Virus record (IMG/VR): IMGVR_UViG_3300024518_005076
Length of the DNA: 64,000 bases
Strand: one strand, 5' to 3'
Source: a virus
Taxonomy: Duplodnaviria; Heunggongvirae; Uroviricota; Caudoviricetes
A program made the translations under genes and the position numbers. Positions within the stretch are counted from its first letter, which is position 1. Each line of letters starts with the position of its first letter. Under the pieces are notes generated by a model that worked only from the letters and a program-made list of their open reading frames with translations, ran no database searches and had not been told where the DNA came from. Of the stretch, positions 16,183-34,390 are shown in pieces.

Positions 16183-17607
16183 TTAGCCATTCACCAGCTG
16201 GTCGATAAGACCAAAACTGTTTTCGTGGCGAGGAACCGCATCGATGTAGTGCGTACCACGCATCGTGAAGATGCCAGAAGCAAAGTTGCTTCCATGGCTG
16301 TCCGTGACCTTAACCTCCATCATCGGAGACCGGCCAATGAACAACTCAGAGGGGACGCCACCCAGAACGTAAGTCAGGTCCGTGCCTGAACTCTTCGCTC
16401 GGATGTTGTTAACCTGCGTACCGGTGAACACTGGGTGTCCGCCGATCGATTCCCGAACTCCGCCGTCGCCATAAGCGAGAGCAGCAGCACGGAACTTCGG
16501 CTGACCCTGGGAATCTTCGCGATACTTCAGGGCTGCCCAGATCAGATTCCGCATCGTGAGGAACGTGCCCGTGCCGACAGGAGCGTTGTTGTCCGCGATC
16601 TTCGCGAGCAGCAACTCAGGATCCTTGGGCTCAAGCGTGTCGCCATTGGCACCAGTTGTGCTGGCGGTATGGGTCTGGATTCCGGAGTACCGGATCAGGC
16701 CCTGGATGTATGCTCCACCCGGACCATCACAAATGTCCTGATCGACGTTCAGGGCGATGTCCTTGGTGATTTCATCTCGAACAAAAGCGTCTGCAGACAC
16801 GGTCGTCGAGAATCGCATGAACTCTTCGGTCATCTCAACCAGGCCGTTGTACTTTTTGGCCTGCAGCAAGACGTCCGCAGTTGTCGGAGTACTTTCACTC
16901 ACAGCTTCCGATTCCGCGTGAGCCGTAATCGTGACAGCGCCGGTCACTTTCGGGTAGCGAATCTGGCCCTGTTGCGGCATCGGGACTTCCCGAACGCCCG
17001 GAATCCGACCCCAGAGGGAGCTGGCTCGCAGGAATTCAATCAGTTCACCCTGCTGCGGGAAATCAACAAACGTCCCACCAGTCGTGGCGGTACGATATGT
17101 CAAATCCTTGCTCAGTCGCTTGGACAGCCAGGCCGCTTCATCCGGGTCGAAACTGCCCAGATTCGTGTTCATCTGACGCCACTCTTTGGTCAGCTCGGAG
17201 CCATCCTGCTCCATATAAGCTGAGCCGATCGGAACCATGAAGGCACCGCCGACCGTCTGGCCTTTGCTCTTGGATTCCTTGGCCAGCTTCTGGCAGAAGT
17301 CCATTTCGAGCTTGCAGTCTTCAGTATACTCCTGCTTCGTGGCGTGAAGGACAAGTCCCTTGGCCAGGCGGGAGAAGCTGAATGCTCGGCTCGTGTTGAC
17401 AGATTCGCCAACCGACATCCCTGGAGCACCTTGCATCCACGGAGCCTGTGCTTTCGAGTGCTCATCGACGGTCTTCGCAAGCGACTCCACATTGGCAGTC
17501 ATCTTCTCGAAGCCATCAGCCAGATCTTCGATGCTCTTCGCGATGAACTCAGCAGGATCAGTCGCGCTTTCTTCGGTCGCATTGGCAGCGGTATTGGTGT
17601 CAGCCAT
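16183..17607 (-). CDS. Major capsid protein, HK97-fold family (start at MADTNTAANA...)
   Basis: 475-aa ORF with typical Phage_capsid composition; preceded by scaffold, protease-position and portal genes. Confidence 0.8.
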   Translation of the reverse strand: MADTNTAANATEESATDPAEFIAKSIEDLADGFEKMTANVESLAKTVDEHSKAQAPWMQGAPGMSVGESVNTSRAFSFSRLAKGLVLHATKQEYTEDCKLEMDFCQKLAKESKSKGQTVGGAFMVPIGSAYMEQDGSELTKEWRQMNTNLGSFDPDEAAWLSKRLSKDLTYRTATTGGTFVDFPQQGELIEFLRASSLWGRIPGVREVPMPQQGQIRYPKVTGAVTITAHAESEAVSESTPTTADVLLQAKKYNGLVEMTEEFMRFSTTVSADAFVRDEITKDIALNVDQDICDGPGGAYIQGLIRYSGIQTHTASTTGANGDTLEPKDPELLLAKIADNNAPVGTGTFLTMRNLIWAALKYREDSQGQPKFRAAALAYGDGGVRESIGGHPVFTGTQVNNIRAKSSGTDLTYVLGGVPSELFIGRSPMMEVKVTDSHGSNFASGIFTMRGTHYIDAVPRHENSFGLIDQLVNG

Positions 17608-17624
17608 GACAGTTTCTCTCCAGT

Positions 17625-18317
17625 TTAGGTGTCCTGGCCGCACGCGCGGGCCATAGAGCAGTTGATTTCGTCCAGTCGTTCCGCCAGACCAGACATCGAA
17701 GATGTGACCGTAGTCAGACTCTTAACAACCTCAGTTGTTGAGTCCGCCTTACGGAGCTTCTTGCGTTCCCGCATAATTTCGACTGCTTTTGCAAGCGGGT
17801 CGATCTTCTTCTCTTCCGTCTTCGTCTCAACATCGTCGTTTTTAACGATGGTATCCGAGGTCTCGTCATCCCCATCCTTGGGTTCAGTCGCAGGCTCTTC
17901 CTGCTTGACGAGACTTTTGATCTCTTCGAAGCTCTTCTCGATTTCTTCCTTCTCGACCTTCATGGTGGACGCAACAATGTTGACTGCGCTTTCCAAGTCG
18001 GACATTCTCTCGCCGAGCTTGTCCATTGTGGTTCTCAGTCGAATTCCAACCTCAGGCTCGGCGTCTTCATCCCAGTCAGAATGATGGATATCAATTCCGA
18101 CATGCTCTTTGAGAAGTTCAATCAACGGCTGAGCCTGGTCAGCAGTCAGGCCTTCGATGCTCTTCAGGATCTCGACAGCCTGGCTGATTTCATCCATGGA
18201 CGTGTCCTCTTTTGTCAGTACAACAAAATCCGAACCTGGCACAGCGCCTTTTCGGACGAGGCTGACCTCTCCGATTGAGACATCGCTCAGGCGTCGTCGT
18301 TTGTTTGTTTCAGACAT
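17625..18317 (-). CDS. Head scaffolding protein (acidic, coiled-coil)
   Basis: Glu/Asp/Lys-rich helical ORF directly upstream of capsid gene. Confidence 0.55.
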   Translation of the reverse strand: MSETNKRRRLSDVSIGEVSLVRKGAVPGSDFVVLTKEDTSMDEISQAVEILKSIEGLTADQAQPLIELLKEHVGIDIHHSDWDEDAEPEVGIRLRTTMDKLGERMSDLESAVNIVASTMKVEKEEIEKSFEEIKSLVKQEEPATEPKDGDDETSDTIVKNDDVETKTEEKKIDPLAKAVEIMRERKKLRKADSTTEVVKSLTTVTSSMSGLAERLDEINCSMARACGQDT

Positions 18318-18963: not shown

Positions 18964-19707
18964 ATGAGTGAAAGGTTAGATTCGGTCGCAATCAAGTTCC
19001 GCGTATCGAACGAACTGTCAGTCCTGCTTCAGGACGCTGCTGGAAACAGACACCTTGATAAGGCAGAAATGATAAGGCAGGTACTGGCCTCGTGGCTAGG
19101 TCGTCCCGATACAGCACAGCTCACAAACTCACTGAATATTACGTCTCGAAAGGCTATGGCCAGGGTAGATATCGGGTTAGAGAAACTCAGGCAGGGTATG
19201 AAATCTGGCTGGAAAGATCTGTCTTCCGGAATTATTGATCTTCTGAACTGTGGCTATGTCCGGATGGCGGACAGATACTGGAGATTCGCCAACAACCTCA
19301 ACTTGAAGAGTCGGCATCTTGAGGGTACTAAACCTCTTGCCGACATGAAGCTCATGATTAAAGAGCGAGCGCTCTATCTGGAGGAGAGCCTGTTCCCCCA
19401 ATGGATCTCAGGCGAACCAAGGACTGTTGGACTCTTCGTGATCAACAGAAAGCTCAAGAAGGGAACTCGCGAGGAGCTTCTTCGTGTGAAGTCTCCCCAC
19501 GATCTCCCGCTGCTTGACGACAAAATACTGGCCCATCACCGAGTTCCGGTTACTCCGAAAATCAGTTCGCGTTATTCAGGGCCATTCGACCAACCTGAAC
19601 TGGCTTTGCCTGAGGCTGAGCAGATCCATTCTGGTCAGGTTTCTCCGGGGTTTTGCCTGCAGGATCCTGCCCTGGCTCAATCGGAATCCCAGTGTTCGGG
19701 TCAATGA
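18964..19707 (+). CDS. Ribbon-helix-helix (Arc/CopG-like) DNA-binding protein, opposite strand inside the morphogenesis operon; 3' end overlaps portal C-terminus so true stop may be earlier
   Basis: N-terminal 'VAIKFRVSNELSVLLQDAAGNRHLDKAEMIRQVLASWL' matches the RHH beta-alpha-alpha pattern; fills a 570-nt minus-strand gap. Confidence 0.5.
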   Translation: MSERLDSVAIKFRVSNELSVLLQDAAGNRHLDKAEMIRQVLASWLGRPDTAQLTNSLNITSRKAMARVDIGLEKLRQGMKSGWKDLSSGIIDLLNCGYVRMADRYWRFANNLNLKSRHLEGTKPLADMKLMIKERALYLEESLFPQWISGEPRTVGLFVINRKLKKGTREELLRVKSPHDLPLLDDKILAHHRVPVTPKISSRYSGPFDQPELALPEAEQIHSGQVSPGFCLQDPALAQSESQCSGQ

Positions 19708-20992
19708 CCTGGAAGCCAGAGATCATGACTGGCCGGTCGCCCAGCTCGCCACCGAACGGCTTCAGGTTCATAAGAAGCTCACGAACCTCGTCCGGAGTGA
19801 TGGCACCGCACTTCAGGCAAGTCAGAATGTTATCTCTCAAGCTTTGCTGAGAGTCGACATTGCAAGGCCCCAGTTTAATGAACAGGTTGCCAGGGAAGTC
19901 CGAGGCAAGCTTCTGGGTCAGATGCTGGGAAATGTGCTCAAGGATCGGATCCACAGTCATCTTGCAGAACTGAGTGAGCGACCCTTCCATTGAGGCACTG
20001 GTCATTCCCTCTCCGAGGCCGACCACAGACTTCGGAACACCATGAGTGGCCAAAGTGATAGACAGTGTTCTGTCCAGGCTGGAAGAGTAATCCAGTTCCT
20101 TCACGCTTCCGGAGTTGTATTGCCCGGAAAGCTTCAGGCCCGAGTGTGAGATCATCGGAGCACCCGTCTGATCCGCCATGCTGTGCTGGGCGAACAAATT
20201 GGCCCAGAGCTGGTGGACCTGATGTGGCTGGAGCCGCTTCTCGCACTCGAAAACCATGCCTGGCGCGGCAAAATTCTTGAACTGGTAGTACAGACGCCTG
20301 TGCATCTCATCTTCCAGGTCAATAGTCGTTGCAGCCGCCTTAATCGAGGGAGTTCCGTAGTATCGGCCAGAATCACTCCAGTCCAGGCTGGGATTCTTGA
20401 TATGGATCATCCACTCTGGCGGAACGACGAAGTTTTCGCCCACGGCTCCAGAGTCGATCTGGTAACCGCCGACCATCTCTGTCTCACCCGACAGGACTTT
20501 CACCCACTGAGTCGGCATTGGCCAGATTTCTCTGGGGATTCCAAACCCGTTGCGAGCCTTGTAGAGGAAAGAGTCGCCCGTCAGGAGTCTCCACCCAACC
20601 ATGTAAAACCAGAGGTCCCATTCGGTATCTACCGGGTTCACATCGCGGAGAAGCTCGACCAGCGGGTGCGTTGGGGAGACTTCTTCGGTCTTCCATGTGC
20701 CCTTCTGCTTGAATTTGCGGAAAACCTTGGCCTTTTGCATTGCGGCCATCCGAGCAATTGCTCCAATGGCGATATAGGTTGAGCCCTTGTACTGCTGGGC
20801 GTACTTGTTCCGATCTTCAACCCAGCGAGCGGGAGTTCCTGACTGGCCCAGTCGATTAGCCATTACCGGGAACTGCTGCTCAGCCGGAAACGTACGGATG
20901 TCTCGACCACGAGTCGGACCTTGAGAGAATTCAACCTCTCGGAACGAACTACCAGCGTTCTGAAGAATCGATTCCAGGTTCGTCAGGGCCAT
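19562..20992 (-). CDS. Portal protein (476 aa)
   Basis: Size, composition and position upstream of protease/scaffold/capsid. Confidence 0.75.
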   Translation of the reverse strand: MALTNLESILQNAGSSFREVEFSQGPTRGRDIRTFPAEQQFPVMANRLGQSGTPARWVEDRNKYAQQYKGSTYIAIGAIARMAAMQKAKVFRKFKQKGTWKTEEVSPTHPLVELLRDVNPVDTEWDLWFYMVGWRLLTGDSFLYKARNGFGIPREIWPMPTQWVKVLSGETEMVGGYQIDSGAVGENFVVPPEWMIHIKNPSLDWSDSGRYYGTPSIKAAATTIDLEDEMHRRLYYQFKNFAAPGMVFECEKRLQPHQVHQLWANLFAQHSMADQTGAPMISHSGLKLSGQYNSGSVKELDYSSSLDRTLSITLATHGVPKSVVGLGEGMTSASMEGSLTQFCKMTVDPILEHISQHLTQKLASDFPGNLFIKLGPCNVDSQQSLRDNILTCLKCGAITPDEVRELLMNLKPFGGELGDRPVMISGFQVIDPNTGIPIEPGQDPAGKTPEKPDQNGSAQPQAKPVQVGRMALNNAN

Positions 20993-21504: not shown

Positions 21505-21891
21505 TTGCTGGTAGATTGCCCAGTCATATTCATTTCTCAAACCCAGAAAGCATCCATGGACAAATCCAACTGCCAGATCATGGAAGACGCCGCCCGATCC
21601 AGAATGGAAGACTTATACCCGGAACTTCTTGAGGACTGGCACCCTGCTGAGATTCAGCTCGAAAACGTGCAGGTCATTGGAGATCCGGGAGGAAACGACG
21701 CCAGTATTACCGTGTTTTCCGATGCTGCCCCCGGCTCAGAGTTTGTTCCCCTGCTGATCTTTACAGAGATGACAGAGTCGGGAGAATGCATCTTCCCAGG
21801 CTATCTTCAGAGTTCGAATCCACATTTTAAGACTCTCATAGGACACGCACTCAATGACCGACCTCAAATCGATCCCAGAGGGGAAGATTGA
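21505..21891 (+). CDS. Hypothetical protein (128 aa)
   Basis: First ORF of plus-strand block. Confidence 0.45.
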   Translation: MLVDCPVIFISQTQKASMDKSNCQIMEDAARSRMEDLYPELLEDWHPAEIQLENVQVIGDPGGNDASITVFSDAAPGSEFVPLLIFTEMTESGECIFPGYLQSSNPHFKTLIGHALNDRPQIDPRGED

Positions 21892-22771
21892 GACAGTTGA
21901 GATTTCCCTCTTGCGGAACAACCCGCTCAATGAGGAAATCTACGGCACCGAGGATGTCGACCCTGATCTTTTAAGGTCGATTCAAGATCACGGTGTCGAT
22001 ACGCCGATTGAAGTTCTTCCGGACGGAACTATCATCAAGGGCCACCGCAGAAAGCTGCACGCAGAAGAGGCTGGGCTTACAGAGGTCCCAGTTATTGTCC
22101 GCCACGAGCTGAACTCTCCGGAAGAGGTTGGCTTCGCTCTGATCGAAGACAATCGCCACCAGAGAAACAGGACGAATATACAGAAGGTGCGTGAAATCAT
22201 GTACCTGACAGGGATGCTCCAGACCCAGAACAGAATCCGCAAGGCTACGGGGCTTCCTGTTTATGAGGCTGATGCCCATACGGACGAAGAACTTATGGAG
22301 CTTTCCGGGATGAGCCGGGAGAGCTACGAGCAGGTTGCCAGTCTCACCGAAAGCTATGCAGCCAGGTTTGGATCGTCAGCATCTCCCCAGGATGTGGCCT
22401 GTGATCACATCGGAGTCAGCAAAAAGACGTTCATGCAGGGACAGAATGCCCTAAAGACAGCAGAGGCCTGGCGGAGTGCTGGAAACGACAAAAAGGCCGA
22501 CCAGATCGAAGAGGCTCTCCATAAGGGTATCTCAACTGGATATCAGGTCGCCAAGAAGATCGGTCAGCCCGGCAAGAGGAGTGAGAAGAAAGTAATCAAG
22601 GCTAAGGCCAGCATAGAGTCGGTCATTCTCACTCTTAAGAGTATGACGGCGGCACTTCACAAGGCTCGCGTCGCCATTCCAGAATCACTGCGTGATCAGC
22701 TCGACACCATCATCAATAAAATCAATAGCATGAGGGAAGAACTTGAAAAGTCCGAACTCGACAATACTTGA
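21854..22771 (+). CDS. ParB-like nuclease domain protein (305 aa)
   Basis: N-terminal ParB/Srx pattern incl. 'IIKGHRRKLHAEEAGLTEVPVIV'; immediately precedes a DNA methyltransferase (common phage ParB-MTase pairing). Confidence 0.7.
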   Translation: MTDLKSIPEGKIETVEISLLRNNPLNEEIYGTEDVDPDLLRSIQDHGVDTPIEVLPDGTIIKGHRRKLHAEEAGLTEVPVIVRHELNSPEEVGFALIEDNRHQRNRTNIQKVREIMYLTGMLQTQNRIRKATGLPVYEADAHTDEELMELSGMSRESYEQVASLTESYAARFGSSASPQDVACDHIGVSKKTFMQGQNALKTAEAWRSAGNDKKADQIEEALHKGISTGYQVAKKIGQPGKRSEKKVIKAKASIESVILTLKSMTAALHKARVAIPESLRDQLDTIINKINSMREELEKSELDNT

Positions 22772-25022
22772 GGGCGACAGCCTGCAAGTACTCAAAGGCC
22801 TGCCTGATAACTCATTCCAGTGCTCCGTAAGCTCGCCTCCTTACTGGAATTTGCGCAACTATCAAGTCGATGGACAGATAGGGCTTGAGCCAACCGCACG
22901 CGAATTCATCCAGAATCTCGTATCTGTTTACTCAGAACTAAAGAGGGTTCTCCATCCGTCTGGTATTGCCTGGATTAACATAGGCGACAACTACGCCGGT
23001 GGAGGAAACAAGCGAGGCAAGGGTAGTCCGATATCCAGCAAACAGTCCAGTAATGCCGGATGCACTGGCCAGCTTGCGGATGTGCCAATAGTAGAAGATC
23101 TTCCACGGAAGAACATGAATGGAATGCCATGGAGATTTGCCTTTGCAATGCAGGATGACGGCTGGGTCCTCCGAGATGCGATAATTTGGCAGAAAAAGAA
23201 TCCGATGCCTACGAGCCAAAAAGATAGATGTACGAACTGTTACGAGTACATCTTTCAGTTCACGAAGGGTCCAAAGTACTTCTTTGATATGGAGTCTGTG
23301 AGAGAGCCTGCCAGATATGGAGCTGGGGAGAACTTTCGGAGTTCGTCATATCTCAATGATAAGTCTCACAACAACAGCCAAGACCGGTCAGGATCGACCG
23401 AAGGAGGGATTCCGGGCAAGGGTGGAACGCGAGTGCCTAGGAACATCAGAAGCTGGGCAACCCAAGGCTATAAAGGTGCTCACTTTGCTTGTGTTGACGA
23501 GGAAACCCAGTGCTTGACCAAAGAAGGATGGAAGTCTCAAGATCAAATTAAGCCGGGTGATGTCGCCGCCCAGTACAACATGGAGAGCGGCCTCTTGTCC
23601 TGGGCTGAAGTTGAAGACGTAGCGAGATACGATGTTTCTGACCAAGACATGGTTTCTGCCGAATGCCGTGACTTGTCAATGCTTTTGACTCCTAACCACA
23701 GAACGATAATCTCCAGAAGAAGATCGAGAGGAAAAGGCCATCACCCTCCGACCATAATCGAAGCTGAGAATCTTAGTGATGGCCACAGAATACCAGTCTC
23801 TGCCGACTGGGATGATGGCGATCATGATCAAACCATGGGAGGGGTAGAGTGGGCAGAACTGATAGGATGGTACGTTGCGGAAGGGTACGAAAACAAGAAA
23901 TCGTGGTCTGTGGATATATATCAAAGCAGATCAGCAAATCCGGAAAAGGTCGAGAGGATTCGGCATCTTCTGGATTACGTGGATGCCGAGTACGAAGAGA
24001 CTCAATCTGAGAGGAAATACAAAAATCGCACATGCAGCATGTCTTCATTCAGAATAACTGGTCACGCGGCCATAAAAATAAGAAGCATGGTCCCAGGGAA
24101 AAGGCTTTCTTGGTCTTATATGGGGCTGTCAGCAGAAGAGATGAGGGCTCTTGTTGCTGGACTTATTGCTGGAGATGGACACATTCGGCCAGATGATGGC
24201 CGGGTGTGCTTTATCCAGAAGTCGGACCACTGTATCGACTTGGTTCAAGCAATGGCTGTTAGGCTGGGATATGCTGTAAAGATCACAAAATCCCCTTCAA
24301 CATGGAGAATGTACCTGACTGAAAAAAGATACATTTCTCTTCGTGGTACGAATGGAAGTGGCAGGAATATATCAACAAAGAAATATTCCGGAGTTGTGTG
24401 GTGTCCAAAACTACCCCATGGAACCTGGGTTGCTAGGAGGAATGGACGAGCATTCATAACTGGGAATACTTTTCCAATTTCGCTCCCTCTATGGTGTATT
24501 ACGGCCAGTGCTCCGAAAGCAGGCGTCTGTGCTAAATGCTTCACGCCATACAAGCGAGTAGTCGAAAGCATCCGCAGGGCGACCCGTCCGGGAGAAAACA
24601 CCAAGATCAAGATGCCGGACGGATGGGACACAGGAGAGGGCGGGCACGGCAGTTTTCATCGGGAAGGCAGAGAGAAAGGCCAGTACCGTGACACAGCAGA
24701 GATTGGAAACAGAGATCCGCAACGTCACGTCACAGAAACAACCACCGTTGGGTGGGAACCTGGATGCACTTGCGATTGCGGAACTGATTTCCCAGCAATT
24801 CTGGATCCCTTCTCAGGGGTCGCCACTACAGGACTGGCCTGTTCGCGCCTCCGATGCCACTACGTGGGAATCGAACTTAATCCAGAGTATGCACAGATGT
24901 CGCGGGACAGAATCAAGGACGATCTGATCAAGGGATTCGATCCGAACCCACATGCCGTGAACCTTAATCTGGGAACTGGTATCGACTTATGTCAGGAAAA
25001 CGTGTCACAATTTAATTACTAA
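22743..25022 (+). CDS. N6/N4 DNA methyltransferase (beta-class: SPPY catalytic motif first, FSGVATTG SAM motif last) interrupted by a LAGLIDADG intein
   Basis: 'SVSSPPYWNL' near N-terminus; 'ILDPFSGVATTG' near C-terminus; 'GAHFA'+'TFPISLP' flank the insert and rejoin to match the HPAVFP motif of the second MTase at 33448. Confidence 0.8.
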   Translation: MKSPNSTILEGDSLQVLKGLPDNSFQCSVSSPPYWNLRNYQVDGQIGLEPTAREFIQNLVSVYSELKRVLHPSGIAWINIGDNYAGGGNKRGKGSPISSKQSSNAGCTGQLADVPIVEDLPRKNMNGMPWRFAFAMQDDGWVLRDAIIWQKKNPMPTSQKDRCTNCYEYIFQFTKGPKYFFDMESVREPARYGAGENFRSSSYLNDKSHNNSQDRSGSTEGGIPGKGGTRVPRNIRSWATQGYKGAHFACVDEETQCLTKEGWKSQDQIKPGDVAAQYNMESGLLSWAEVEDVARYDVSDQDMVSAECRDLSMLLTPNHRTIISRRRSRGKGHHPPTIIEAENLSDGHRIPVSADWDDGDHDQTMGGVEWAELIGWYVAEGYENKKSWSVDIYQSRSANPEKVERIRHLLDYVDAEYEETQSERKYKNRTCSMSSFRITGHAAIKIRSMVPGKRLSWSYMGLSAEEMRALVAGLIAGDGHIRPDDGRVCFIQKSDHCIDLVQAMAVRLGYAVKITKSPSTWRMYLTEKRYISLRGTNGSGRNISTKKYSGVVWCPKLPHGTWVARRNGRAFITGNTFPISLPLWCITASAPKAGVCAKCFTPYKRVVESIRRATRPGENTKIKMPDGWDTGEGGHGSFHREGREKGQYRDTAEIGNRDPQRHVTETTTVGWEPGCTCDCGTDFPAILDPFSGVATTGLACSRLRCHYVGIELNPEYAQMSRDRIKDDLIKGFDPNPHAVNLNLGTGIDLCQENVSQFNY
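23490..24467 (+). mobile_element. Intein (about 326 aa) with double-motif LAGLIDADG homing endonuclease; boundaries approximate (N-junction Cys at 23490 or 23511; C-terminal Asn 24465 followed by Thr)
   Basis: Starts Cys after 'GAHFA'; LAGLIDADG-like 'LIGWYVAEGY' and 'LVAGLIAGDGHI'; ends '...FITGN' + 'T'. Confidence 0.6.
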
Positions 25023-25503: not shown

Positions 25504-25893
25504 ATGTTGCCATGCCCGTTCTGTGCGTCGGACAATTGCCATGTAATGGAGAAGCCGGGGCATCCTCGCCTGTGGGTGGAGTGCCTGGACTGTGGCTCTT
25601 CAGGCCCAGATGTTTTCTCTTGGGATGGGGCAGAGGAGTCCTGGAATATTCGCGGCTGTGATTGCATGTCGGAGCAGTTCGAAAACCACACGGAGATCGA
25701 TGAGGTCACGCTTCGCCCGGAAATTAATTGTGGAGAGAGGCAACTTGGCCGCTGGACGATAGTTGCCCATCACGAGCGGAACGGCAGGAAATACAAGGCT
25801 TATGAGTTTCCTGCGGTGGATGATGATCTGATCGGGGATATCCTGAAAAGCCTATTCGCATCAGGAGCCAGATCGACAGACGCTACTCAGTAA
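25504..25893 (+). CDS. Lar-like restriction-alleviation zinc-ribbon protein (129 aa)
   Basis: N-terminal 'MLPCPFCASDNC' plus a second Cys pair, like Lar-family proteins; GGGAGG RBS. Confidence 0.55.
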   Translation: MLPCPFCASDNCHVMEKPGHPRLWVECLDCGSSGPDVFSWDGAEESWNIRGCDCMSEQFENHTEIDEVTLRPEINCGERQLGRWTIVAHHERNGRKYKAYEFPAVDDDLIGDILKSLFASGARSTDATQ

Positions 25894-25911: not shown

Positions 25912-26526
25912 ATGACTCAGAAAGTAATCTCTCTGTGTGATCGCACAGGGAACATGGTTAAGCCATGGGCAGAGGCTGGATACGAATGCATCTGTGTTGA
26001 TATCCAGCATTCCATCCGAAGGACAAAAGTCAAAGGCAACATCACCTATCAGTGGGGCGACGTCCGGTCGTGGTGGCCTTTTCCGGATTGGGATATTGCC
26101 ATGGTGTTTGCAGCGCCACTTTGCACGGACCTCTCGGTTTCAGGTGCTCAAGACTGGCCCAAGAAGGGCCTGACTCGCTTAATTGACGCCCTGACTATGG
26201 TTGAATGCTGTCGTCGCATCGGAGAGTTCAGCCGAGCACCATGGATGATCGAGAACCCGGTCGGAAGACTCTCGTCCTTGTGGAGCAAGCCGGACTACAC
26301 GTTCCAGCCATGGAACTACGGAGATATGTATCAGAAGAAGACCTGCCTCTGGACGAACGAGAAGTTTGTGATGCCAGAGTTTCAGATCACAGAAAAACCA
26401 GAGGAAGTCACTCAGGATATCTGGACTATGTCCCCATCTGCTAACCGGGCCGATCTTCGGTCGGTCACTCCGATGGGATTCTCAAAAGCAGTATTCGAGG
26501 CCAATCATCGTATTAAGGCCTCGTGA
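25912..26526 (+). CDS. C5-cytosine methyltransferase-like protein, short (204 aa) with degenerate SAM motif
   Basis: 'ISLCDRTGNM...AEAGYECICVD' aligns to motif I but FxGxG is replaced; 'APLCTDLSVSG' resembles PCQ motif IV; 'IENPVGRL' resembles ENV motif VI; no target-recognition domain. Confidence 0.5.
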   Translation: MTQKVISLCDRTGNMVKPWAEAGYECICVDIQHSIRRTKVKGNITYQWGDVRSWWPFPDWDIAMVFAAPLCTDLSVSGAQDWPKKGLTRLIDALTMVECCRRIGEFSRAPWMIENPVGRLSSLWSKPDYTFQPWNYGDMYQKKTCLWTNEKFVMPEFQITEKPEEVTQDIWTMSPSANRADLRSVTPMGFSKAVFEANHRIKAS

Positions 26527-33369: not shown

Positions 33370-34390
33370 CTTTGGAAAAGGAAATATCTATTGAGGATAT
33401 GCAGAAGATTGTGGACGCAAACGAGAAATTAGTTAAGGAGTTGAAAGATGGAGATAAATAAAATTTACAACGAAAATTGTCTTGATACGATGGCAAAAAT
33501 GCCTGATTGCTTTGTGGATTTAACGGTTACTTCACCGCCTTATGATAATTTGAGAGATTACAAAGGGTTTGATTTTGATTGGAAAACTATAATAAAAGAA
33601 CTTTATAGGGTAACAAAAGAGGGTGGTGTAGTAGTTTGGGTTGTTGGTGATGCAACAATTAAAGGAAGTGAAACGGGAACATCTTTTAAGCAAGCATTAC
33701 ACGCTATTGATTGTGGTTTTCGTTTGCACGATACAATGATTTACTCAAAAGCAAGTCAGCCAAGACAAAACGGGCATAGGTATGAACAGCAATTTGAATA
33801 TATGTTTGTGTTTAGTAAAGGGAAAGTTAAAATAAAAAACATTATAAAAGAACCATCTAAAAATGCAGGAAAGGTTGTCAAAAGGACTTGTAGAGATAGT
33901 GGAAAAGATGAACTAAAAAGTAGTAAAAATATTGTTTCAGACTTAAAAACAAAAGGGAATGTGTGGTTTTACGGAACTAAAAAAAACGACACAAAACACC
34001 CTGCTGTATTTCCTAAACAATTAGCAAACGACCATATCATAAGTTGGAGCAATGAAAACGATTTAATCTACGACCCATTTTTGGGAAGTGGAACAACGGC
34101 TAAAATGGCGTTACTAAACAATCGAAAATTTGTCGGGAGTGAAATATCAAAAGAGTATTGCGAAATTGCAGAGAAGCGAATCAATGAAAATCTATAAAAT
34201 CACAGACGCAAGCGATTATCTTGGAGTGTCTATAAACACCCTCAAGACGCTTGCCAACAACGGAAAGATAAAATCTTTCAAGACTACTGGTGAGCATAGG
34301 CGTTTTCGTCAGGAAGATTTAGACGCTTATATGGGAGTCGAGAAAGAGAAGAAAGAAAAGCTGACTGTGATTTATGCCCGTTGCTCTACT
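33370..34390 (+). other. AT-rich compositional island (foreign insertion)
   Basis: Sharp drop in GC versus flanking ~52-55% GC sequence; contains MTase and IS607-type TnpA fragment. Confidence 0.6.
33448..34197 (+). CDS. N6/N4 DNA methyltransferase (beta-class, 249 aa)
   Basis: 'DLTVTSPPYDNLRDY', 'KHPAVFPKQLANDHI', 'YDPFLGSGTTA' motifs; perfect AAGGAG RBS. Confidence 0.85.
   Translation: MEINKIYNENCLDTMAKMPDCFVDLTVTSPPYDNLRDYKGFDFDWKTIIKELYRVTKEGGVVVWVVGDATIKGSETGTSFKQALHAIDCGFRLHDTMIYSKASQPRQNGHRYEQQFEYMFVFSKGKVKIKNIIKEPSKNAGKVVKRTCRDSGKDELKSSKNIVSDLKTKGNVWFYGTKKNDTKHPAVFPKQLANDHIISWSNENDLIYDPFLGSGTTAKMALLNNRKFVGSEISKEYCEIAEKRINENL

Follow-up and report, generated by a model that had tools for sequence, protein, structure and literature searches.

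A LAGLIDADG intein very probably interrupts a beta-class DNA methyltransferase of a tailed phage

The DNA analysed here, a stretch of 64,000 nucleotides (nt) from IMG/VR virus record IMGVR_UViG_3300024518_005076 (Caudoviricetes; the whole stretch is called the window), encodes a DNA methyltransferase (MTase) whose sequence is broken by a long in-frame insert. The open reading frame (ORF) occupies positions 22743..25022 on the plus strand, as do all of the parts described below. It starts with TTG, 8 nt downstream of a GAGGGA Shine-Dalgarno sequence, has zero internal stops and ends with a TAA codon at 25020..25022. The predicted precursor, consisting of an N-terminal MTase portion (N-extein), the insert and a C-terminal portion (C-extein), has 759 amino acids (aa) and a mass of 84.9 kDa. 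A model that saw only the DNA letters and translated ORFs had proposed that the insert is a self-splicing intein with a homing endonuclease (the original prediction). We evaluated this proposal using homologue alignments, profile and structure comparisons, and searches of phage genomes and protein databases.

The N-extein (aa 1-249, 22743..23489) was assigned using Pfam family PF01555 (N6_N4_Mtase) and invariant columns of a homologue alignment, and includes motif IV as SPPY (aa 31-34, 22833..22844). The C-extein (aa 576-759, 24468..25019), also assigned from Pfam and the homologue alignment, contains motif I as DPFSGVATTG (aa 688-697, 24804..24833). The order of these motifs, SPPY N-terminal to DPFSGVATTG, is that of beta-class enzymes, and PF01555 matches the ORF in two separated stretches (E=5e-32). 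Relatives of the MTase in the PDB include CcrM, M.RsrI, M.PvuII and N4-cytosine MTases. Based on the SPPY motif and on tblastn matches annotated as N4-cytosine MTases, the enzyme is probably of the N4-cytosine (m4C) type. Also present in the C-extein is a cysteine cluster, CxxC…CxC (24528..24773), that is kept in homologues; in this MTase subfamily a Cys-cluster segment of ~105 aa lies between the interrupted motif and motif I.

The insert comprises aa 250-575 (326 aa, 23490..24467), with Cys as its first residue, Asn as its last and Thr next. An alignment of the window MTase with ten homologues (alignment A1) shows that it opens exactly between the invariant residues A246-H247-F248-A249, encoded at 23478..23489 at the end of the N-extein, and T576-x-P578, within the conserved TFP (24468..24476) that begins the C-extein. 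Both extein halves retain every invariant column of this alignment. The insert is missing from the aligned homologues of ~400 aa, where the insert-free junction is an invariant AHFA-T[FY]P; the original prediction had raised a natural, non-intein domain of homologous MTases as the alternative, and none occurs at this site. When joined, GAHFA and TFPISLP align without gaps to KHPAVFPKQL (from nt 33997) of a second, uninterrupted N6_N4 MTase encoded in the window (33448..34197, plus strand). The assignment to a beta-class MTase, the limits of the insert (to the base) and the match to the second MTase are therefore as first proposed. The split motif, H-x-A-x-F-P, is indeed conserved; it is distinct from catalytic motif IV (SPPY) and lies upstream of motif I, which binds S-adenosylmethionine (AdoMet). 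It may correspond to the region of motif X, or of the AdoMet pocket, in MTases of the beta class.

With the conceptually spliced MTase (433 aa) as query, 7,705 matches were obtained. The best of these, P0022, is a protein of 436 aa that lacks the insert and aligns with 100% of the query at 72% identity. Its contig (L004) has the same gene pair as the window, in which a ParB_N-like gene (21854..22771, plus strand) overlaps the start of the MTase gene by 29 nt; the counterpart beside the insert-free allele is at L004:3..929. Given this shared gene pair, we consider P0022 to be an empty-site allele in a related phage, which supplies the intein-free comparison that had been proposed. The conservation of the pair suggests a functional ParB-like/methylase module. 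Across the junction, the empty-site DNA reads …GGTGCTCACTTCGCA / ACTTACCCGATC…, and that of the window reads …GGTGCTCACTTTGCT / intein / ACTTTTCCAATT… (here and below, a solidus within a sequence marks the point of insertion or splicing). The insert-free junction of L004, a candidate target of the endonuclease, is also written …GCTCACTTCGCA / ACTTACCC… and …ATAAGGGTGCTCACTTCGCA / ACTTACCCGATCGAGCTT….

In the predicted intein (23490..24467, 36.9 kDa), a LAGLIDADG homing endonuclease lies between the two parts of a Hint splicing domain. Block A (CVDEETQCLTKEG, 23490..23528), identified through family conservation, supplies Cys1 as the N-terminal nucleophile. Block B (DLSMLLTPNHRTII, 23670..23711), which aligns with its counterpart in the AceL NrdHF intein, contains TPNH (residues 67-70), with Thr67 at position B:7, His70 at B:10, and Thr72 rather than Trp at B:12. 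The endonuclease domain (approximate limits 23832..24329) was placed using the Pfam LAGLIDADG_3 match, model secondary structure, structural and profile matches, and conservation. Both LAGLIDADG motifs named in the original prediction are present, the first (LIGWYVAEGY, within WAELIGWYVAEGY, 23850..23888) with acidic residue Glu131 and the second (LVAGLIAGDGHI, 24150..24185) with Asp229. The score for LAGLIDADG_3 (PF14528) is 39.3 bits, above the curated cut-off of 22.5 (E=8e-10). Block F (VVWCPKLPHGTWVARR, 24393..24440, also from family conservation) contains VVWC and places Cys305 at F:4, which is Asp in most class 1 inteins (PMC7891396). Block G with the +1 residue, RAFITGN/T (24447..24470), provides Thr324 (G:5), Gly325 (G:6), Asn326 (G:7) and Thr+1. 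Of the block B and terminal signatures that the original prediction had associated with an intein, TPNH and the terminal Asn were identified, but the terminus is Gly-Asn and not His-Asn. A hidden Markov model (HMM) search of all 519 stop-to-stop ORFs in the window found one intein copy only and no second.

An AlphaFold2 model of the insert, made from the family alignment (mean predicted local distance difference test score, pLDDT, 88.2; predicted template-modelling score, pTM, 0.87), has beta-rich N- and C-terminal segments that flank an alpha/beta core. In a Foldseek comparison with the PDB, whole intein–endonucleases ranked at the top (TliVMA, PhoVMA, PI-SceI, PI-PfuI and PI-PkoII; E 3.5e-17 to 2e-8, template-modelling score ~0.6), with I-DmoI/I-SceI and, separately, Hint domains of Hedgehog, BIL and mini-inteins ranked next. 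The family profile had 12 significant matches to PDB sequences, and 12 of the 12 are inteins; I-DmoI, I-SceI and PI-PkoII were matched by structure or profile. Profile–profile alignment (hhalign) to Pfam-recognised PF14890 inteins, those of the MTase homologues P0023, P0029 and P0080, gave a probability of 97.6%. The modelled structure thus combines a Hint fold with a two-motif, monomeric-type LAGLIDADG endonuclease. The five top-ranked intein–endonucleases (PDB entries 7qsu, 7qst, 1vde, 1dq3 and 2cw7, in the order given above) have the same two-domain architecture and fold as the window intein, share 10-16% sequence identity with it, and differ in ending with His-Asn. Presumably they also differ in having Asp at F:4 and in coming from archaeal or yeast hosts.

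A database search with the insert identified 21 relatives, mostly within PF01555 proteins. Their consensus is C-V-D-x-x-T-x-x-L-T in block A, L-L-T-P-N-H-R in block B, W-A-E-L-L-G-W-Y-x-A-E-G and L-L-x-G-L-I-x-G-D-G-H in the two LAGLIDADG motifs, Y-x-G-V-V-W-C in block F, and R-R-N-G-x-x-F-I-T-G-N followed by T, S or C in block G. When the inteins alone of 15 members, drawn from six or more different host proteins, are aligned, C1, T67, H70, D229-G230, W304-C305 and T324-G325-N326 are invariant. Conservation was also counted over 178 domains from the best phmmer matches. Cys at A:1 (154/154) and His at B:10 (166/166) are without exception, and nearly so are Thr at B:7 (162/166), Cys at F:4 (158/159), Thr at G:5 (151/158), Gly at G:6 (157/158) and Asn at G:7 (157/158). 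The acidic residues of LAGLIDADG motif 1 (Glu or Asp, 168/169) and motif 2 (Asp, 167/169) are equally well kept. Conservation of splicing and endonuclease residues alike argues that the element is functional rather than decaying. The +1 residue is T in 105, S in 39 and C in 6 of 150 members, and B:12 varies (C 70, T 26, W 19, N 16 and V 11; n=165).

The family is widespread. In a tblastn search of 50,697 phage genomes with the insert, 140 records matched; for 139 of these the match covers at least 80% of the query, and the matches listed run end to end (1-326). Among the host proteins, as annotated, are DNA methylases, TerL, portal, thymidylate synthase (ThyX), RNR-beta, DNA polymerase I, RtcB, NAMPT and metallophosphoesterase. 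Scans of genomes and viral contigs add the anaerobic ribonucleotide reductase NrdD (Chromatiaceae, Peregrinibacteria), portals of the P22 and SU10 types, family A polymerase and RNA polymerase subunits. In every case inspected, unrelated host proteins included, the match boundaries are Cys and Asn followed by Ser, Thr or Cys. When 1.84 billion cluster representatives were searched exhaustively with phmmer, there were 7,823 matches at E<=1e-3, of which 3,093 reached E<=1e-10. For nearly all of the 150 best, the match spans residues 1-326 of the query and lies within a larger protein.

Within these best 150 cluster representatives, the MTase site occupied in the window, xHFA/T[FY]P, holds at least 98 of ~150 intein copies; among the 50,697 isolated-phage records it was found occupied in none. 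The same-site copies include P0001-P0013, one from Streptomyces chiangmaiensis (L014), one from a metagenome-assembled genome of Gemmatimonadales (L015) and four on IMG/VR contigs (L046-L049). These relatives, together with P0143 and those following it, interrupt the same MTase family at an xHFA/C…GN/T[FY]P junction and have 42-54% intein identity to the window; they are orthologous alleles and are unannotated. In the isolated phages, DLane gp61 and Boilgate gp61 at first seemed to match without a break from the N-extein into the insert, as a same-site intein would. Of these two, DLane gp61 was checked and is a 318-aa insert-free MTase, so that its match is a BLAST over-extension; the two-piece match in StAnnes joins two separate genes. 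A limited literature search found no paper on an intein at the xHFA/T[FY]P site.

The original prediction had considered inteins in phage MTases to be uncommon. The counts above contradict this for the present combination of intein and site, and methylase inteins have been published. Kelley et al. (2016) list 11 inteins in DNMT-1/2 N6_N4 methylases of clusters E, F1 and F3 (PMC5050341), and Gosselin et al. (2023) report that Dorothy_75 and 20 others among 271 methylases carry inteins, with ShiLan_65, Lilac_101, Willsammy_52 and Hannaconda_142 also named (PMC9957025). A 2025 survey places N6/N4 and C5 methylases among 19 intein host proteins (bioRxiv 10.1101/2025.01.02.630785). The actinophage methylase inteins that we inspected (Dorothy, Lilac, Willsammy and Hannaconda) belong to the family of the window intein, with 28-31% identity over the full length, and they share with it a PF01555 host, the LAGLIDADG endonuclease and a sporadic distribution. 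They differ in their site, IAWLYG/SGFPKS, which is equivalent to IIWQKK/NPMP at about extein aa 152 of the window MTase; AHFA/TFP is ~100 residues further downstream. The actinophage methylases also form a different subfamily, and the exteins have only short, motif-level similarity to the window MTase (E~1e-5).

Three homologues of the window MTase (P0023, P0029 and P0080, 42-55% identity) carry a different intein at IWHK/(S)NPMP (alignment A1, columns ~168-490). This intein has a LAGLIDADG endonuclease, ends with His-Asn and belongs to PF14890 (Pfam match on P0023 and P0080). The site corresponds to the one at which the family of the window intein sits in the actinophage methylases. Thus, there are two intein families and two homing sites, combined in different ways. 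The actinophage-type MTase site is also occupied in P0021 (372 aa), by a mini-intein of 180 aa (CLDAQS…AFITGN/SGFPKS) that belongs to the window's family and is presumably an endonuclease-deleted derivative.

One experimentally studied family member is the intein in the RDF/metallophosphoesterase of mycobacteriophage Bethlehem (gp52 in AY500153; gp51 in Kelley et al., 2016, PMC5050341), which tblastn aligns over residues 1-326 at 22.6% identity. It has the sequence features C1…ITANHR…GEVWC…HLTGN/S, and shares with the window intein Cys1, a block B of the form T-x-N-H-R, two LAGLIDADG motifs, block F (G-E-V-W-C) and a T-G-N terminus. It differs in having a calcineurin-like phosphoesterase as host protein, Ser at +1, a distant sequence, and a phage with an actinobacterial host. 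This intein splices completely in a reporter, and replacement of its penultimate Gly by His slows the reaction, which then takes >5 h for ~50% completion (PMC5050341). Toxicity of a family member is reported in the same paper. Because a penultimate Gly is a family trait and the Bethlehem intein splices, the lack of the usual His is no obstacle.

From these data we conclude with high confidence that a genuine intein, in which a Hint domain carries a LAGLIDADG homing endonuclease, has been inserted in frame into a beta-class MTase of a tailed phage. The central claim of the original prediction is upheld by the empty allele with 72% identity, blocks A, B, F and G, the Hint and LAGLIDADG fold, and the many unrelated host proteins. 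Several observations weigh on the other side. None of the models built for intein splicing in Pfam (PF14890, Hint families) or NCBIfam (N- and C-terminal) matches the insert at E<=0.1 to 1, and these scans gave no more than faint matches to models of intein-containing RNR and Tes. We attribute this to sequence divergence. Similarly, a single-sequence phmmer search of the PDB with the insert returned nothing significant, only noise; for a family this divergent, evidence at the family level is needed. The active site is non-canonical in having Gly instead of the usual His as the penultimate residue and Cys instead of Asp at F:4. There is also no strong signature of recent invasion: GC content at third codon positions (GC3) is 0.457 in the intein and 0.526 and 0.524 in the exteins, a modest difference that is compatible with a foreign origin and is not decisive. 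Identity to the empty allele of L004 does not rise close to the junction and no co-conversion tract was found, a comparison that is uninformative at 73-81% nucleotide identity. When divergence is compared, the intein (43-54% identity) is more similar than the C-extein (34-41%), which is suggestive of mobility or of constraint and is not decisive.

We infer that the window intein splices and homes; for splicing, the published behaviour of the Gly-Asn family member provides the analogy. Canonical class 1 splicing is most likely, as it is favoured by the invariant Cys1. Translation would yield the 84.9-kDa precursor, presumably inactive as its H-x-A-x-F-P motif is split. An N-S acyl shift at Cys1, helped by Thr67 and His70, would form a thioester at the AHFA/C junction, from which the N-extein would move to Thr+1 by transesterification. 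Cyclisation of Asn326 would free the 36.9-kDa intein, and an O-N shift would create a native peptide bond in a 48.0-kDa MTase with AHFA-TFP. The computed masses are close to, and slightly different from, the ~36 and ~49 kDa first predicted for intein and MTase. In co-infections, the endonuclease would be expected to cut insert-free alleles (e.g., L004), and the intein would be copied in by repair. Homing is proposed because the catalytic acids are conserved and the distribution is sporadic.

A different chemistry for the same intein is possible though unlikely. In this class-3-like or hybrid scheme, a branched thioester on Cys305 (F:4) would replace Cys1, or relay from it, before transfer to Thr+1. 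The signature of class 3 inteins is WCT, i.e., Trp at B:12, Cys at F:4 and Thr at G:5 (PMC5222942, PMC2807308), and the latter two are near-invariant in the family. At +1, 144/150 members have Thr or Ser, which is likewise typical of class 3. Furthermore, the best PDB sequence match of blocks A-B is to the class 3 AceL NrdHF split intein (6zgq; E 1.3e-6), which was experimentally assigned to class 3 despite Met at B:12 and no penultimate His (PMC7891396). Like the window intein, it combines Cys at F:4 and Thr at G:5 with the absence of Trp at B:12 and of the penultimate His; it differs in being naturally split, in the absence of an endonuclease, and in having Ala1 where Cys1 is invariant in the family studied here. 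Trp does occur at B:12 in the 19 of 165 family members noted above, which gives these the full WCT triplet plus Cys1; for WCT inteins starting with Ser1 or Cys1 the class was left open by Tori et al. (2010; PMC2807308). Against such a scheme, class 3 inteins need no N-terminal nucleophile and mostly have none, whereas Cys1 is without exception in this family; B:12 is Thr in the window intein; and the related RDF intein was classed as class 1 by Kelley et al. (PMC5050341). In addition, installing WCT in a class 1 intein failed to convert it to class 3 (PMC7664689), and thus the triplet alone is insufficient to fix the mechanism. We found no data in the literature on C1A or F:4 mutants of this family.

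The co-occurrence of invariant Cys1 with Cys at F:4, Thr at G:5 and a penultimate Gly rather than His leads us to put forward, tentatively and as something we would not expect to be the case, two speculative variants. One is a hybrid of the class 1 and class 3 pathways, in which the Cys1 thioester would be relayed via a branched thioester on Cys305 to the weak Thr or Ser at +1. The other is a redox-sensitive Cys1–Cys305 disulfide that would gate MTase maturation during infection.

It is improbable that the intein has decayed and no longer splices, in which case the insert would stay in place, the MTase would be inactive and the phage would rely on its two other MTases. The Gly-Asn terminus and the absence of a curated intein-splicing HMM match could be read in this way, the phage does encode two further MTases, and decayed copies of the family exist (L039, with stop codons, and P0020, ending with TGT). 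However, every catalytic position of the window intein fits the strongly conserved family consensus, the extein halves keep all of their invariant columns, and the Bethlehem intein, with the same Gly-Asn terminus, splices completely and is slowed by the change to His (PMC5050341). Still less probable is a domain that stays in the protein permanently, or a fused free-standing endonuclease, comparable to the second endonuclease, the ShiLan domain or the Taj_79 insertion in actinophage methylases. Non-intein insertions are known in phage N6_N4 methylases (PMC9957025, PMC11855218), but here a complete Hint fold flanks the LAGLIDADG core, conservation extends to Cys1, TxxH, Asn and the +1 nucleophile, and the boundaries are identical in unrelated host proteins. 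An assembly chimera or sequencing artefact that joined an MTase gene to an unrelated endonuclease gene is scarcely credible, as no point was found in its favour, the identical 759-aa protein occurs on five independent contigs (four of 50-200 kb), which shows that the architecture is no assembly artefact, and the at least 98 cluster-representative copies have the same architecture and site.

Additional members of the family were noted in other proteins. In P0265 (2602 aa), nine stretches match the intein, and P0202 and P0282 have four stretches each; the matches suggest that these are host proteins with several inteins of the family. The NrdD proteins of Chromatiaceae (Chromatium weissei, L016:1..3678, and Chromatium okenii LaCa, L039) contain two inteins, the first (aa 165-406) of the PF14890 type with an HNH_3 endonuclease and the second, at NVPSRWGxQ/TPFTN, of the window's LAGLIDADG family. 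The stop codons in the C. okenii LaCa copy are near its C-terminal end, and this intein may be decayed or mis-assembled. The family also interrupts Rpb2/Rpb1-like RNA polymerase proteins on IMG/VR contigs (L060:1..3996 and L061:283..4038, also L063 and L064), at KLHHTSE/SKSQGRG and FLRTPE/SGKVG. These are likely to be multisubunit RNA polymerase genes of large phages. In the phage encoding P0002, a close relative of the window intein at the same site, gene calling divides the MTase into two ORFs with an ATGA overlap on three independent contigs (L005:7246..9554, L006:758..3111 and L007:7201..9554). The N-terminal MTase half (with motif IV and IIWSKPNPMP) stops in a variable region ~50 codons upstream of the intein; possible explanations are a split gene, a frameshift and a pseudogene.

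Other genes identify the window as a tailed-phage genome. In addition to the ParB-like protein, it encodes a major head protein (16183..17643) and a portal protein (19562..20992), both on the minus strand. Beside the intein-bearing MTase is an anti-restriction cluster (25504..25893, 25912..26526 and 33448..34197) comprising a Lar-like restriction-alleviation protein (PF14354, a weak match), a third DNA methyltransferase (phrog_757, E=4e-64) and the second, uninterrupted N6_N4 MTase.

In summary, the window intein is ordinary in that its family and its site are common in sequence databases, and nothing about it is surprising to an intein specialist. For annotation, the gene should be described as one intein-containing MTase, of 48 kDa when spliced, plus a homing endonuclease; it should be called neither a 759-aa fusion nor two genes. 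If the hybrid or redox reading of the invariant pair of Cys1 and Cys at F:4 were true, the family would be a living link between two intein classes, or a conditional switch. In N6_N4 methylases, the H-x-A/T-F-P motif is a very frequent homing site of inteins, separate from the W-x-x-x/(S)GFPKS or NPMP site known from actinophages, and one intein family moves between both of these MTase sites and many other phage and bacterial genes.

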